Below are positions 27,952 to 52,283 of a DNA stretch of 64,000 nucleotides, one piece after another. The DNA is from Chloroflexi bacterium HGW-Chloroflexi-8 (GTDB taxonomy: Bacteria > Chloroflexota > Anaerolineae > Anaerolineales > Anaerolineaceae), in the NCBI GenBank assembly GCA_002841995.1, contig PHBS01000001.1, positions 13,277 through 77,276 of the forward strand, read 5' to 3'. The stretch's first letter is position 1. Each line of letters starts with the position of its first letter. Made by a program: the position numbers and the translations under genes. Under the pieces are notes generated by a model that saw only the letters and a program-made list of their open reading frames with translations, was not told where the DNA came from and searched no databases.

Positions 27952-28446
27952 ATGACAAACATAAACTCCGAGAATGAACATCGCGAACTTGAACTATTGA
28001 ACAAGATTTCAGCCGATCCGGATTCAACACAGGCTACTCTTGCTTCGCAATTGGGTGTTGCTGTTGGAACAATAAACTGGCACATCAAACGTCTGATTGA
28101 AAAAGGATATGTAAAAGTTCGTCGAGCTGAAAGACGGAAATTGAAATATATCATCACGCCTGAAGGAATTGCACTTCGGGCAAGTTTGACATTAGATTTC
28201 ATTCAAAGTTCGATGAGTCTTTACCGTCTAATTCGAAATCGTTCTTTAGTTGCTATCCAACAAGTACGCAAATTAGGATTTAATACGGTCCGAATAATTG
28301 GCGAAGGTGATGTTGCTGAAATTTGTAAATTGACTTGTCTGGAGCAAAATATTGAATTGGTCGATGGAATAATTGAAGCCCCGATTATTCGTATTGATGA
28401 ACTGAAATTGAATGTTTCTTATAAGGAGGATCATCTAGATGAGTAA
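27952..28446 (+). CDS. Winged-helix MarR-type EPS-associated transcriptional regulator with a C-terminal extension
   Basis: [55 protein letters not shown] is the wHTH. The extra C-terminal part of about 70 aa ([15 protein letters not shown]..) looks Rossmann-like. Confidence 0.7.
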
Positions 28447-29389
28447 TTTTTGGTCACAAAAAAGGGTGTGTGTTACTGGTGGTGCAGGTTTCCTGGGAAA
28501 AGTTGTTATTGGGAAGTTAAAAGAACGTGGTGCTACCGAGATCTTTGTGCCAACAATCGAAGAATATGATTTGGTTGATCCAAAATCAATTGATCAAATG
28601 CTAATTGATTCAAATCCAGATGTCATCATTCACCTGGCTGCACATGTTGGGGGTATTGGCGCAAACCGAGAACATCCGGCTGAGTTTTTTTATGATAATT
28701 TGATGATGGGGGTCCAGTTAATCCATAAGTCCTGGCAACGTGGAATAGAAAAATTTATTGCCATTGGAACTGTTTGTGCATATCCTAAATATACACCAGT
28801 ACCATTCAAAGAAGATGATCTTTGGATTGGCTATCCGGAAGAAACCAATGCGCCTTATGGTCTGGCTAAAAAGATGCTACTGGTCCAGTCACAAGCTTAT
28901 AGAGACCAATATGGTTTCAATTCTATCTTTCTCTTGCCAGTTAATTTGTATGGACCTGGAGATAATTTTAACCTACAAAGTTCTCATGTCATCCCGGCTT
29001 TGATTCGTAAATGTGTCGAAGCAGAAAATAAAGGGATTTCGGAAATTGAAGTATGGGGTGACGGTTCACCAACACGGGAATTTATTTTTGTGGAAGATGC
29101 AGCTGAAGGAATTGTAATGGCTGCGGAATCTTATAATGAGTCTTTGCCGGTGAATATCGGTTCAGGATTTGAAATCAGTATCAAGGACTTGGCTGAGAAA
29201 ATTGCCCAATATACCGGATTTAGTGGAAGACTTGTCTGGAATCCAGATAAACCAAATGGTCAACCACGACGCGGATTAGACACATCCCGTGCTCTTGAAA
29301 AATTTGGGTTCAAAGCGAAAGTCAATTTTGATGAGGGTTTAATAAAAACCATTGCCTGGTATAAAGAAAATCAACACTTGATAAAGTAA
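28439..29389 (+). CDS. fcl: GDP-L-fucose synthase (GDP-4-keto-6-deoxymannose 3,5-epimerase/4-reductase)
   Basis: [51 protein letters not shown] and [12 protein letters not shown] are collinear with Fcl/WcaG. Confidence 0.85.
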
Positions 29390-29409
29390 ATCACAAAAGA
29401 TTGCGATCT

Positions 29410-30261
29410 ATGGAGATAGAACAAACACATGTCCCAGTTACATATCTGAAGCCGCCCAAAGGTTTGGCTTCATTAAATTTGCGTGATTTATGGGAATATC
29501 GCGAATTAATCTATTTCCTTACCTGGCGCGATGTAAAAGTTCGTTATAAACAGACCTTACTTGGTTTTACCTGGGTTGTATTACAACCTTTAATAAATAT
29601 GGTTGTATTTACGATACTTTTTGGAGAATTATTAAAAGTTCCCACGGGCGGAATTCCATATCCAATATTTTCTTTTGCCGCATTACTTCCCTGGACATAT
29701 TTTGCTACATCGCTAACCCGCTCTTCTACCACCCTGGTGGGTAGTGCAAATTTAATCAGCAAAGTCTATTTCCCACGAATGGTTATACCCATTTCAGGTG
29801 TCATCTCTGGCTTTATTGATTTTGGAATCTCTTTTGTCATTTTAATTGTTATGATGCTGATCTATAAAATAATTCCTTCCTGGAATTTATTACTATTACC
29901 AATTTTATTGCTTTTGGCAATGTTGACAGCCCTTGGTTTTGGATTGTGGCTTTCGGCATTAAATGTACGATTTCGGGATATCAACCATTTAGTCCCATTT
30001 ATTATCGAAATCTGGAAGTATGCAACGCCTGTAATCTATGGAAGCACATTAATTCCGGAGAAATACCGATTTATTTTGGGGCTTAATCCTCTAACAGGGG
30101 TTGTGGAAGGATTTCGTTGGGCGATTCTGGGTGGCAAATATGTTGACACTTTTAACCCGGGACCTTTATTTGTAATATCGATTGCGATTACCTTTGTTGT
30201 CCTAATATCGGGAATCATCTTCTTTAGAAATACTGAAAGAACTTTTGCGGATATCATATAA
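29410..30261 (+). CDS. wzm: ABC-2 type polysaccharide export permease
   Basis: YRELIYFLTWRDVKVRYKQTLLGFTWVVLQPL is the ABC-2 signature N-terminus. Six TM helices are present. A TTG at 29401 is an alternative start. Confidence 0.9.
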   Translation: MEIEQTHVPVTYLKPPKGLASLNLRDLWEYRELIYFLTWRDVKVRYKQTLLGFTWVVLQPLINMVVFTILFGELLKVPTGGIPYPIFSFAALLPWTYFATSLTRSSTTLVGSANLISKVYFPRMVIPISGVISGFIDFGISFVILIVMMLIYKIIPSWNLLLLPILLLLAMLTALGFGLWLSALNVRFRDINHLVPFIIEIWKYATPVIYGSTLIPEKYRFILGLNPLTGVVEGFRWAILGGKYVDTFNPGPLFVISIAITFVVLISGIIFFRNTERTFADII

Positions 30262-50723: not shown

Positions 50724-51456
50724 CTCGAAAAAAAGAATTGTTCTAATAACCGGGGCAGCCGGCGGAATCGGAAGTGCAACCGTAAATCTTTTCCATGAAA
50801 AAAATTGGTTAGTAATCGGTGTAGACAGAGCGAAGTTTTCCGGTGTTTTTCCGGATGATGGTGTATTTGTTCAAGCAGATATCTCCGATCCAACTCAATT
50901 GGAAAATATTTATCAAAATGTTAGTAAATTTACGGATTCCCTTGATGCAGTGATTAATAATGCAGCTTTTCAAGTTGTGAAACCTCTTTTGGAGACCAGT
51001 GTGGAAGAATGGGATGCGGTTATGGCATCCAATTTACGCTCTGTGTTTTTAGGTGCAAAACTTTCACATCCATTATTGAAAAACCATGGAGGGGGAGCAA
51101 TTGTAAATGTATCGTCTGTCCATGCAGTTGCAACATCTGCGAATGTGGGCAGCTATGCCGCCAGTAAAGGTGGGCTTTTAGCATTGACGAGGTCTATGGC
51201 AATTGAATTCGCAAAGGATAATATTCGGGTCAATGCAATTTTGCCGGGCGCAGTGGATACCCCCATGCTTTCAGCTCACTTAGATCAGGCACGTTTGGAA
51301 AATTTAGCGCTAAAGACAGTCATTGGTAGAATCGGAAAACCAATAGAGCTTGCACATGCAATTTATTTCTTGGCAGACGAAGAGCAATCTTCTTTTATGA
51401 CAGGTCAATCCATCCTGGTTGATGGCGGAGCGACAGCGAAATTGAGTACAGAATAA
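50716..51456 (+). CDS. SDR-family oxidoreductase
   Basis: TTG start. VLITGAAGGIGSA, NNAA, YAASKGG (YxxxK) and PGAVDTPM are present. Confidence 0.85.
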   Translation: MDNSKKRIVLITGAAGGIGSATVNLFHEKNWLVIGVDRAKFSGVFPDDGVFVQADISDPTQLENIYQNVSKFTDSLDAVINNAAFQVVKPLLETSVEEWDAVMASNLRSVFLGAKLSHPLLKNHGGGAIVNVSSVHAVATSANVGSYAASKGGLLALTRSMAIEFAKDNIRVNAILPGAVDTPMLSAHLDQARLENLALKTVIGRIGKPIELAHAIYFLADEEQSSFMTGQSILVDGGATAKLSTE

Positions 51457-51458
51457 AT

Positions 51459-52283
51459 ATGAAATCAATTATAAAGAAATCCCTACCTGTACCAGTTTTG
51501 GAATTTGTTCGCAACTGTCTGGATGCATCCAAAAGGAGTTTGGAAGTTCCAAATGCATATTTCCACCCTTGGCGGAAACAGACACGGCAGCGCATCGTGA
51601 AATATAAAGATATTCACAAAAATCAACGTTGCTTCATACTCGGGAATGGTCCAAGTCTTAAAAATACTGATCTTTCTAAGTTGAAAAATGAAGTTACGTT
51701 TGGAATGAACCGAATTTATCTTGCATATTCCGATATGGGTTTCTCTTCTACCTATTATGTTTCTGTCAATGATCTGGTTATTGAACAATGTGCAGAAGAC
51801 ATTCAGAATTTAAAACAACCAAGGTTCGTTTCATGGCGGGGTGGAAAGAAATGGTTGCAACCGGATGATGACTTATTTTTCCTTTATACGACCTACACAG
51901 AACCGATATTCGCTAAAGATATTCGTAATCGCATCTGGGAAAGTGCAACTGTTACCTATGTAGCATTACAGATTGCTTTCTATATGGGATTTAAAGAAGT
52001 TATTTTGATTGGTGTTGATCACAATTTTGAAACAAAAGGGAAAGCAAACACGACAATTGTCTCACAAGGCGATGACCCCAATCATTTTCACCCAGAATAT
52101 TTTGGAAAGGGATTCCGTTGGCAATTACCCGATCTGGAAAAATCAGAAATCGGGTACCAAATGGCCAAAAAGACTTTCGAAAAAGCTGGCAGAAAAATAT
52201 TGGATGCTACCATTGGCGGTAAACTGACAATTTTTGAAAAAATTGAATACAATGAATGTTTTTCTCAAAGACCGGTTTATTAA
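51459..52283 (+). CDS. DUF115/MptE-like (Maf family) protein resembling CstII-type sialyltransferases; candidate nonulosonic acid transferase
   Basis: RCFILGNGPSLKNTDLSKL parallels the CstII/Maf GNGPSL motif. ATVTYVALQIAFYMGFKEVILIGVDHNF parallels CstII TSGVYMCAVAIALGYKEIYLSGIDFY. Confidence 0.6.
   Translation: MKSIIKKSLPVPVLEFVRNCLDASKRSLEVPNAYFHPWRKQTRQRIVKYKDIHKNQRCFILGNGPSLKNTDLSKLKNEVTFGMNRIYLAYSDMGFSSTYYVSVNDLVIEQCAEDIQNLKQPRFVSWRGGKKWLQPDDDLFFLYTTYTEPIFAKDIRNRIWESATVTYVALQIAFYMGFKEVILIGVDHNFETKGKANTTIVSQGDDPNHFHPEYFGKGFRWQLPDLEKSEIGYQMAKKTFEKAGRKILDATIGGKLTIFEKIEYNECFSQRPVY

Follow-up and report, generated by a model that had tools for sequence, protein, structure and literature searches.

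A block of 24 genes at positions 27952 to 52283 of a 64,000-nucleotide stretch of contig PHBS01000001.1 from Chloroflexi bacterium HGW-Chloroflexi-8 (the whole stretch is called the window here) is a family-wide cell-envelope sugar-polymer operon of the Anaerolineaceae, filamentous members of the Chloroflexota. It consists of two complete modules, each with a NeuB-family synthase and an activating cytidylyltransferase, and a third cassette that has a cytidylyltransferase and no synthase. The best explanation, held with moderate confidence, is a MarR-controlled, ABC-transporter-dependent pathway for a teichulosonic-acid-like acidic wall polymer in a monoderm phylum. The block probably makes two sialic-acid-like sugars, and a third with the add-on cassette.

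Loci of relatives came from a scan of one genome per GTDB species and were compared by tblastn with the 24 window proteins. The core was collinear and on one strand in 76/76 assessable loci, with Bellilinea, Longilinea, Ornatilinea, and Leptolinea among the genera represented, and both synthases were found together with the first two cytidylyltransferases in 57 of the 60 loci with full flanks. Genes g06 to g18 (numbered as below) were present in 54 to 64 of the 64 loci with full upstream flanks and in 66 or 67 of the 68 with full downstream flanks. The operon head (MarR, epimerase, Wzm, Wzt, and g05) was kept in the g05-anchored loci of Bellilinea, Longilinea, and one metagenome-assembled genome (L083 to L085). 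There are thousands of homologs of g14, g12, and g05; those listed are 54 to 98% identical, and all listed homologs carrying an organism name are from Anaerolineae/Chloroflexota, including Longilinea arvoryzae and Bellilinea caldifistulae. Relatives of g14 occur in at least 529 species-representative genomes, the best 80 of which are all Anaerolineales/Chloroflexota and include Ornatilinea apprima, B. caldifistulae, and Leptolinea sp. HRD-7. The glycosyltransferases of the block are 50 to 75% identical across genera, unlike those of hypervariable capsule and O-antigen loci, which suggests a conserved polymer structure.

Domains were assigned by Pfam (gathering score) and NCBIfam (equivalog cut-offs) scans of the 24 proteins. 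The features of the block and its control region are as follows:

27764-27795, + strand: intrinsic-terminator-like hairpin (14-bp stem and T tract) that ends the upstream gene; 5' block boundary
27902-27930, + strand: sigma-70-type promoter, TTGACC-17-TATAAT, 11/12 matches, just 5' of g01
27929-27943, + strand: perfect palindrome ATTCAG-CAA-CTGAAT (ATTCAGCAACTGAAT), overlapping the -10 element and start region
27952-28446, + strand: g01, MarR/HTH_24 regulator, MarR_EPS-like below cut-off; same position held in L083 to L085
28439-29389, + strand: g02, short-chain dehydrogenase/reductase (SDR) family epimerase/reductase, GDP-fucose-synthase (Fcl)-like (299 bits, below the cut-off of 500)
29401-30261, + strand: g03, Wzm-type ABC-2 permease (ABC2_membrane, 66.2 bits)
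30245-31522, + strand: g04, Wzt/TagH-type ATPase with a C-terminal Wzt_C-like domain (ABC_tran, 73.3 bits; Wzt_C, 26.6 bits against a cut-off of 30.4)
31519-33129, + strand: g05, 536-aa Capsule_synth-type GT-B protein, candidate CMP-ulosonate transferase (invariant NVxxD and RxHP)
33139-34008, + strand: g06, SAM-dependent methyltransferase (family scan)
34005-35039, + strand: g07, PseB-type inverting UDP-GlcNAc 4,6-dehydratase (499 bits, above the cut-off of 407.75)
35039-35959, + strand: g08, RmlD-like 4-reductase (198 bits, below the cut-off of 224)
36006-37076, + strand: g09, NeuB-family synthase with SAF domain (longest open reading frame from 35961; gene caller start 36006)
37094-38209, + strand: g10, GT4 glycosyltransferase (family scan)
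38248-39045, + strand: g11, cytidylyltransferase CT1, CTP_transf_3 (best solved relative 6oew, then KdsB enzymes)
39042-39965, + strand: g12, 307-aa protein with no Pfam or NCBIfam match, GT-A fold in model (AlphaFold pLDDT 85.8)
39993-40949, + strand: g13, GT2 glycosyltransferase (family scan)
40993-42453, + strand: g14, 486-aa GT-B protein with an invariant RLHPNH motif (Glyphos_transf, 25.8 bits; BFO_1060 weak)
42450-43439, + strand: g15, GFO/IDH/MocA oxidoreductase (family scan)
43489-44313, + strand: g16, SDR, adh_short_C2 (family scan)
44307-45536, + strand: g17, CT2, NeuA-like cytidylyltransferase fused to a KdsC/Kdn-9-P-phosphatase-type HAD domain (longest open reading frame from 44298)
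45554-46432, + strand: g18, NeuB-family synthase without SAF domain (best solved relative 6ncs, 290 aa)
46432-48039, + strand: g19, 535-aa paralog of g05 and first gene of the accessory cassette (NVxxD and RxHP kept)
48036-48992, + strand: g20, GT2 glycosyltransferase (family scan)
48996-49685, + strand: g21, cytidylyltransferase CT3, NeuA-like, 229 aa (CTP_transf_3)
49722-50723, + strand: g22, D-2-hydroxyacid dehydrogenase family oxidoreductase (family scan)
50716-51456, + strand: g23, SDR, adh_short_C2 (family scan)
51459-52283, + strand: g24, MptE-like/DUF115 protein, 274 aa, candidate ulosonate transferase (CstII-like GNGPS motif)

The open reading frame listing of the window gives these 24 + strand genes and no more, in agreement with an earlier sequence-only reading that had placed every gene from MarR to DUF115 on this strand; - strand open reading frames within the block are short and nested inside + strand genes. 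Using the longest open reading frames, 12 of the 23 junctions overlap, more than 99% of the block is coding, and the widest gap is 49 bp. The ten junctions named by that reading (28439, 31519, 34005, 35039, 39042, 42450, 44307, 46432, 48036, and 50716) are all ATGA, GTGA, TAATG, or slightly longer overlaps, and GC content is even across the block (0.36 to 0.40). Its statement that the block contains no intrinsic terminator also held: terminator-like sites were not enriched over shuffled sequences (13 versus 13.9 and 8 versus 11.2), and none on the + strand is intergenic within the block, all of them falling in coding sequence. Internal sigma-70-like matches were at chance level (74 versus 60.2 ± 7.6 and 54 versus 52.5 in shuffles), including a 9/12 match in the g15/g16 gap (43445-43472) that we do not claim as a promoter, and Rfam and tRNA scans gave no matches. 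At the 3' edge, a convergent - strand gene shares 4 nt with g24.

The palindrome ATTCAGCAACTGAAT occurs once in the window. In L083 to L085 the intergenic region has diverged except for the -35 element, the -10 element, and the palindrome, giving a cross-genus promoter form of CTTGACC-N17/18-TTTATAAT and a palindrome form of ATTCAG-N3-CTGAAT (window, 27902-27943; L083, 6380-6428; equivalent positions in L084 and L085). The palindrome is a likely candidate for the operator of the MarR-type regulator g01, which, by acting at this site over the promoter, would control the operon.

Pfam placed both synthases in the NeuB family (PF03102) above the gathering score, g09 with 241.2 bits and an additional SAF domain (29.9 bits), and g18 with 253.8 bits and no SAF domain. 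All three cytidylyltransferases were likewise above the CTP_transf_3 gathering score (PF02348; 22.6), with 130.8 bits for CT1, 80.6 for CT2, and 104.5 for CT3, and each has a nucleotide-binding loop running from Arg to Lys (ARMGSSRLPGK in CT1, ARGGSKGIPRK in CT2, and PMRHHSVRVPGK in CT3). The count of two NeuB synthases and three CTP_transf_3 proteins in the sequence-only reading is therefore correct, and none of the three cytidylyltransferases falls in a non-ulosonic family, as all are of the NeuA/KdsB/PseF type with NeuA or KdsB enzymes as best solved relatives. Its count of three separate activation modules is an overstatement, since there are only two synthases and the third cytidylyltransferase lies in a cassette with two oxidoreductases and a transferase. 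Pairwise identity is 25 to 27% among the cytidylyltransferases and 30% between the synthases; such low values show that none are recent duplicates. The closest solved relatives of these proteins are NeuA, KdsB enzymes, the cytidylyltransferase 6oew, and the 290-aa sialic acid synthetase 6ncs. We take 6oew (related to CT1) and 6ncs (related to g18) to be Leptospira entries, the organism being absent from the search output.

None of these enzymes reached an equivalog cut-off. Scores for g09 and g18 were 273.4 and 248.2 bits against the N-acetylneuraminate synthase model TIGR03569 (cut-off 399.65) and 246.8 and 200.4 bits against the pseudaminic acid synthase model TIGR03586 (cut-off 340.25). CT1, CT2, and CT3 scored 42.5, 144.5, and 76.9 bits against PseF (TIGR03584; cut-off 205.7) and 54.1, 32.5, and 31.4 bits against KdsB (TIGR00466; cut-off 155.2). 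Because no NeuB, PseI, PseF, KdsB, KdsC, or Kdn-9-P phosphatase cut-off is reached, no classical product can be assigned, and these missed cut-offs, together with the absence of PseC, PseH, and PseG, suggest that the sugars are probably other than the classical ones. The identities of the sugars and the order of steps given below are what we infer from the enzyme families.

Module A (g07, g08, g09, and g11) contains a PseB-type dehydratase, a 4-reductase, the NeuB/SAF synthase, and CT1. No DegT-type aminotransferase, GNAT acetyltransferase, or PseG-type protein was detected among the 24 genes by Pfam or NCBIfam, so that, of the six activities of the canonical pathway to CMP-pseudaminic acid (PseB, C, H, G, I, and F), PseB is represented while PseC, PseH, and PseG are absent; a DegT gene is located 26 kb upstream (1808-2959). 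The PseB product would be reduced by g08 to a UDP-6-deoxy-L-N-acetylhexosamine (HexNAc), and release of the sugar followed by condensation with phosphoenolpyruvate would yield a 5-acetamido-3,5,9-trideoxy-nonulosonic acid with a hydroxyl at C7. Judged by its enzyme content, module A thus most likely makes a 7-hydroxy, 9-deoxy nonulosonic acid instead of pseudaminic acid. In Fusobacterium nucleatum 25586, 2-acetamido-2,6-dideoxy-L-altrose (6-deoxy-L-AltNAc) occurs alongside a 3,5,9-trideoxy nonulosonic acid (Vinogradov et al. 2017, as cited in PMC5595891).

Module B (g15 to g18) appears to follow a different route. The HAD domain of g17 has an intact motif I (DFDGV, residue 267 of the longest open reading frame) and matches chain 3e81 and model NF058599. 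Scores were below the cut-offs of both NF058599, the phosphatase of 2-keto-3-deoxynononic acid (Kdn) 9-phosphate (80.5 against 180 bits), and KdsC NF007019 (118.5 against 208 bits); the domain falls in the same superfamily clade as these enzymes. The combination of a synthase lacking SAF with a cytidylyltransferase-HAD fusion whose phosphatase motif is intact implies a phosphorylated intermediate, as in the animal N-acetylneuraminic acid route and the Bacteroides Kdn route. Module B would then be a Kdn-type or animal-type route in which g18 forms an ulosonate in phosphorylated form, the phosphate is removed by the HAD domain of g17, and the cytidylyltransferase domain of g17 activates the ulosonate with CMP; the oxidoreductases g15 and g16 probably tailor this sugar. 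A phosphatase-linked nonulosonic acid (NulO) synthase proposed in Leptospira is a precedent for such an intermediate (PMC3438082), and NeuB proteins without SAF are typical of environmental bacteria, Streptomyces among them (PMC8208679).

The third cassette (g19 to g24) is a widespread and discrete accessory unit, which a locus either has in full or lacks. When metagenomes were scanned with aligned CT3 orthologs, at least 539 relatives were returned, close orthologs only (60 to 88% identity). Among loci with enough downstream sequence, CT3 was followed by g22 in 36/36, by g23 in 34/36, and by g24 in 33/36, with no NeuB-like gene 3' of CT3 in any of the 36; upstream, g19 was found in 32 of 38 loci and g20 in 25. 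It is this near-constant association of g22 to g24 with CT3, mostly preceded by g19 and g20, that defines the unit. Where present, the cassette directly follows g18 on the same strand with 0- to 3-bp junctions. In the species-representative set, CT3 was found in at least 27 of 68 loci and all three cytidylyltransferases in at least 24 of 60, lower bounds because flanks ended at 10 kb. B. caldifistulae carries the core and at least g19 to g22, and in O. apprima the flank analyzed stops within g19.

By analogy with systems in Acinetobacter baumannii, the simplest reading of g21 to g23 is re-tailoring. The oxidoreductases g22 and g23 would re-tailor, and probably epimerize, an existing acid by oxidation and then reduction with the opposite stereochemistry; CT3 would (re)activate the product with CMP, and g24 and/or g19 would transfer it. 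The epaA-epaB (PMC12053666) and aciABCD/aciE (PMC5595891) cassettes similarly comprise a CTP_transf_3 protein, an adh_short_C2 SDR, and a second reductase without a synthase, and share the logic of converting an existing nonulosonic acid into an epimer for the capsule machinery, as adjuncts to a complete pathway. Pseudaminic acid (Pse) is turned into 8ePse by EpaA, which combines CTP_transf_3 with a reductase, and EpaB, an adh_short_C2 SDR (PMC12053666). The predicted role of aciABCD/aciE, which include the short-chain dehydrogenases AciB and AciE and adjoin the legionaminic acid (Leg) module lgaA-F, is the conversion of CMP-Leg into acinetaminic acids (PMC5595891). Unlike these cassettes, compared here by their descriptions only, that of the block brings its own transferases, g19 and g24.

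Four candidate CMP-ulosonate transferases (g05, g14, g19, and g24), as judged by family and motif, stand against three activating enzymes, within the three to four that the sequence-only reading had matched to three activators; an exported polymer with more than one ulosonic acid is plausible. The paralogs g05 and g19 (22% identity; E = 5e-16) match Capsule_synth (PF05159; cut-off 20) with 24.0 and 26.3 bits. Their HP motif, RxHP, is invariant in 41/41 and 35/35 orthologs, and 37 residues before it lies NVxxD, invariant in 41/41 and 42/42, with N where Q is expected. Retaining transferases of beta-linked 3-deoxy-D-manno-octulosonic acid (Kdo; GT99/GT107) have a QXXXD nucleophile motif, an HP motif contacting the CMP phosphate, and a catalytic Glu (PMC10148158), and from this parallel the g05 and g19 motifs appear to be a Q-to-N variant of the beta-Kdo-transferase active site. 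Of the three KpsS/KpsC-like GT-B proteins that had been proposed, g05 and g19 have this Capsule_synth match, and g14 (at 40993) does not: it also lacks an xXXXD motif and instead gives a TagB/F-type Glyphos_transf match of 25.8 bits, above the Pfam cut-off but marginal. The BFO_1060 family comprises genetically proven transferases of Pse/Leg derivatives in Tannerella forsythia (PMC5420450); with 21.4, 39.9, and 42.6 bits against a cut-off of 200 (NF046086), g05, g14, and g19 are not members. The protein at 51459 (g24) is CstII/Maf-like as described, with an MptE-like match (PF01973) of 48.8 bits, above 34.6, and the motif FILGNGPS; its match to CstII chains in solved structures reached E = 0.02 only.

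Where present, g14 is among the most conserved proteins of the block (57 to 75% identity), with RLHPNH in 80/80 orthologs. A PDB sequence search with the g14 ortholog profile returned nothing significant. Its AlphaFold model (pLDDT 87.5) has a GT-B fold and is nearest to WecB, NeuC, and MnaA (E = 1e-12; target-normalized TM-score 0.64 to 0.70), closely followed by GT4-type transferases. A role for g14 as the missing hydrolyzing 2-epimerase was considered and not adopted, given the Pfam TagB/F-family match, the lack of an epimerase sequence match, and its absence from several lineages that keep the rest of module A. We rank a transferase role above a hydrolase role, because g14 is missing from L. 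arvoryzae and several metagenomic lineages that keep CT1. The loci lacking g14 include L084 (L. arvoryzae, 17531-21369, where it is missing from its usual position), L109, L096, L134, L154, and L116; Longilinea has an extra methyltransferase instead. For g12, a hydrolase role was ruled out by the GT-A glycosyltransferase fold of its AlphaFold model (30 homologs, pLDDT 85.8), the best matches of which are 6p61, K4CP, and TarP. Sequence searches of solved structures with g19 and with the g12 ortholog profile gave nothing significant.

From these families, the polymer would be assembled in the cytoplasm on a lipid carrier by the GT4, GT2, and GT-A enzymes and exported by the Wzm/Wzt ABC transporter, the C-terminal domain of Wzt possibly reading a terminal cap. 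The product would be an acidic wall-linked polymer with two or three distinct ulosonic acids, single polymer and wall linkage being points that we infer. The exporter named by the sequence-only reading is confirmed by the ABC2_membrane and ABC_tran matches, except that Wzt_C of the window protein lies below its cut-off; the L083 ortholog has a recorded Wzt_C match. The beta-Kdo-transferase-like g05 and the methyltransferase g06 come directly after Wzt, and this order, with the Wzt_C-like domain, is reminiscent of chain termination and cap recognition in ABC-dependent O-antigens; g05 may add the terminal cap. Chloroflexota are considered monoderm and lack genes for the BAM complex and lipopolysaccharide (LPS), and what their envelope layers consist of is an open question (PMC13319060). 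In a monoderm cell, an exporter of the Wzm/Wzt or TagGH type argues for a wall-associated glycopolymer and not an O-antigen. A bolder proposal, which we consider rather doubtful, is that all Anaerolineaceae build one structurally conserved acidic heteropolymer with at least two ulosonic acids, one of an undescribed 7-hydroxy-9-deoxy type made by an amination-free PseB route, and that it forms an unexplained outer envelope layer of these filamentous monoderm Chloroflexota.

Several points weigh against the explanation favored here. The block holds no secure candidate for a UDP-sugar hydrolase (the PseG/NeuC/LegG step), so g07 and g08 may instead supply a glycosyltransferase with a 6-deoxy-HexNAc donor while g09 uses another substrate. 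As no synthase, cytidylyltransferase, or phosphatase reaches an equivalog cut-off, their substrates are assigned by analogy. Neither an initiating transferase nor an LCP ligase is encoded inside the block (there is a Bac_transf gene 19 kb upstream), the single 24-gene transcript is putative, and no chemistry exists for any Anaerolineaceae envelope polymer. In the cassette comparison, the EpaA reductase is an aldo-keto reductase, whereas g22 is a 2-Hacid_dh protein that is not fused to the cytidylyltransferase. The hydrolase gap also feeds a rival that we regard as somewhat unlikely, in which the genes of module A do not form a single pathway: g07 and g08, with g02, would make a UDP-6-deoxy-L-HexNAc backbone donor of the L-QuiNAc, L-RhaNAc, or 6-deoxy-L-AltNAc type, and g09 and g11 would use an unrelated precursor. 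A PseB/FnlA-like dehydratase with an RmlD-like reductase is reportedly a route to 2-acetamido-2,6-dideoxy-L-hexoses, said to have been described by Kneidinger and colleagues in 2003, and a GT4 gene (g10) is interposed between g09 and g11, both of which would suit such a split. However, g07, g08, and g09 are contiguous, overlapping, and kept together in 56 to 63 of 64 loci, SAF-type NeuB enzymes usually take a free six-carbon sugar released from a nucleotide sugar, and no other precursor pathway (NeuC, kinase) was found among the block genes.

It is also unlikely, and slightly more so, that the block makes three ulosonic acids that are independent of one another and activated by separate modules, for one exported polymer, a third synthase such as a Kdo-type KdsA being encoded elsewhere. 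The low identity of the cytidylyltransferases, which points to ancient, distinct lineages, would fit this, as would the four candidate transferases and the one exporter; yet the block has two synthases only, no NeuB-like gene follows CT3 in the 36 loci, CT3 is always accompanied by two oxidoreductases, the signature of a re-tailoring cassette, and a housekeeping Kdo supply would not be expected in Chloroflexota, which lack an LPS pathway. A division into two products, with g01 to g18 making a wall polymer and g19 to g24 glycosylating a protein (a pilin, S-layer, or sheath protein) as Maf does flagellins, seems improbable. The MptE-like/DUF115 family of g24 includes the Maf flagellin glycosyltransferases (compare PMC9298399), and the cassette comes and goes as a unit. 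Against this, it is always found immediately downstream of g18, in the same orientation and with 0- to 3-bp junctions, and holds both a g05 paralog (g19) and a GT2 gene. At 274 aa, g24 is presumably CstII-sized and not Maf-sized, a further point against two products. That unrelated sugar genes were brought together by chance or by assembly is hardly conceivable: the window, which matches ENA metagenome contigs exactly, is from a metagenome assembly, a general caveat only, and the order is identical on two independent ENA assemblies and recurs in all 76 genome loci and dozens of metagenome contigs, a synteny that refutes the idea, with uniform GC content across the block.

In Campylobacter, Pse and Leg pathways occur together with DUF115 Maf proteins in the locus for flagellar glycosylation. 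Like the core of the block, the NulO cluster of Leptospira interrogans (Ricaldi et al. 2012, PMC3438082) pairs two NulO synthases with two CMP-NulO synthetases, a published exception to the premise of the sequence-only reading that a locus normally carries one synthase and one cytidylyltransferase; that premise is too strict. One of its synthase routes involves a phosphatase and hence a phosphorylated intermediate, as in module B, and 6p61, the best fold match of g12, is a Leptospira borgpetersenii entry. The 6oew, 6p61, and 6ncs matches of g11, g12, and g18 hint at a cassette shared with Leptospira surface-glycan loci, with the organism confirmed for 6p61 only. Leptospira differs in having a full di-N-acetylated (legionaminic) pathway with aminotransferases and an acetyltransferase, which the block lacks, and in fusing the phosphatase to the synthase and not to the cytidylyltransferase; its cluster as described has neither the third cytidylyltransferase cassette nor the Wzm/Wzt exporter of the block, and it is diderm, whereas the host phylum of the block is considered monoderm. 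In the Kdn pathway of Bacteroides thetaiotaomicron (BT1713 phosphatase, BT1714 synthase), a NeuB-family synthase and a KdsC-like HAD protein precede CMP activation, as proposed for module B; g17 differs in lying below the NF058599 cut-off and scoring higher against KdsC NF007019, and the block has the extra oxidoreductases g15 and g16.

The proposed product is likened to actinobacterial teichulosonic acids, Kdn wall polymers of monoderm bacteria (Streptomyces coelicolor SCO4873-SCO4882, PMC13011467). These are anionic, phosphate-free wall glycopolymers built from a NeuB-type acid; Streptomyces has teichulosonic acid clusters and makes a Kdn-based teichulosonic acid (PMC13011467), and a NeuB without SAF, like g18, is reported there (PMC8208679). 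They contain one ulosonic acid and are encoded by a smaller cluster, while the product of the block, predicted from gene content and the monoderm context, would be wall linked. The beta-Kdo-terminated ABC-dependent O-antigens (WbbB of Raoultella terrigena, Klebsiella O12; PMC9587256, PMC9445017) share a Wzm/Wzt exporter with a C-terminal carbohydrate-binding-type domain, and the placement of methyltransferase g06 beside g05 recalls their terminal capping. WbbB and KpsC/KpsS (PMC10148158) are GT-B enzymes that use CMP-ulosonate donors with Asp-containing xXXXD and HP motifs, as shared by g05 and g19, but the block proteins have NXXXD in place of QXXXD, Capsule_synth scores barely above the cut-off, a probable nine-carbon donor, and a host without an outer membrane or LPS. 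T. forsythia BFO_1060 (PMC5420450) is a TagB-like GT-B protein with an HP motif next to a NulO pathway, which g05, g14, and g19 match weakly (21 to 43 bits against 200); the Tannerella enzymes serve protein O-glycosylation.

ABC-transporter-dependent ulosonic-acid envelope polymers are known as a kind. The sequence-only reading knew of no described locus with this composition. The locus is conserved across the Anaerolineaceae and common in public genomes, and no description of it was found in literature on Anaerolineae/Chloroflexi with nonulosonic, sialic, pseudaminic, or legionaminic acid, in a search of incomplete coverage that gives absence of evidence only. Related loci are thus common, and none has a characterized product. 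We found no description of a family-wide operon of this kind in a monoderm phylum, of an amination-free PseB route, of a cytidylyltransferase-phosphatase fusion in such a context, or of NXXXD transferases.

In relatives, 4- to 6-kb insertions recur at the g10/g11 and g15/g16 junctions (L020, 12450-17498; L027, 12395-18656; L044, 3310-7155), fixed sites at which the operon thus accommodates additional modules. Among the inserted genes are those for large PMT/PMT_2-like or unassigned proteins, for an Antibiotic_NAT acetyltransferase, and for DUF4910/M28-like proteins. Just 5' of the operon terminator and promoter, a 240-aa protein without a Pfam match is encoded at 27024-27746; genes of similar size (201 to 235 aa, no Pfam match) hold this position in L083 to L085, with a divergent GT2 gene ahead of it in the window, L083, and L085. 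Further upstream, positions 330-4525 (GC 0.48) carry a DegT/DnrJ/EryC1 aminotransferase gene (1808-2959) between paralogous NTP_transf_5 genes (330-1244 and 3536-4525), and 5081-9020 encodes a LysM protein, an LPG_synthase_TM-family membrane protein, and a GT2-Bac_transf fusion (7404-9020). As a candidate phosphoglycosyl transferase for initiating a lipid-linked glycan, this fusion could be the primer enzyme missing from the operon. A low-GC island at 17788-25844 (0.28 to 0.30 versus about 0.37 elsewhere) encodes a GT4, a GT2, a methyltransferase, a second GT2, 336-aa and 555-aa proteins without a Pfam match, a PD40 repeat protein, and a methyltransferase, and looks like a glycan module, variable between strains and possibly acquired by horizontal transfer, that adjoins the conserved operon. 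Downstream (52280-57777), a 675-aa - strand protein without a Pfam match, convergent with g24, is followed by GT2, PMT_2 (GT-C), and GT2 genes that resemble a set for extracytoplasmic glycosylation via polyprenyl-phosphate sugars. Taken together, this neighborhood is in keeping with a glycan island.

Anaerolineaceae are among the most abundant filamentous bacteria of anaerobic digesters, activated sludge, and sediments, and the related metagenome contigs derive from digester, activated-sludge, and sediment-type samples. Multiple NulO pathways alone would be unsurprising; it is the conservation, the probably nonclassical sugars, and the link to the Chloroflexota envelope that give the locus its interest. 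The predicted enzymes would provide new material, namely, a PseB-plus-reductase route to a nonaminated 9-deoxy nonulosonic acid, a fusion of cytidylyltransferase and phosphatase, a beta-Kdo-transferase active site in an NXXXD form, and a transferable re-tailoring, activation, and transfer cassette. The cultured relatives B. caldifistulae, L. arvoryzae, O. apprima, and Leptolinea make the prediction directly testable. Chloroflexota stain Gram negative yet lack outer-membrane assembly machinery and LPS genes, and their envelope chemistry is open (PMC13319060). A conserved acidic-polymer operon with two or three ulosonic acids would be a concrete candidate for a major component of this envelope.

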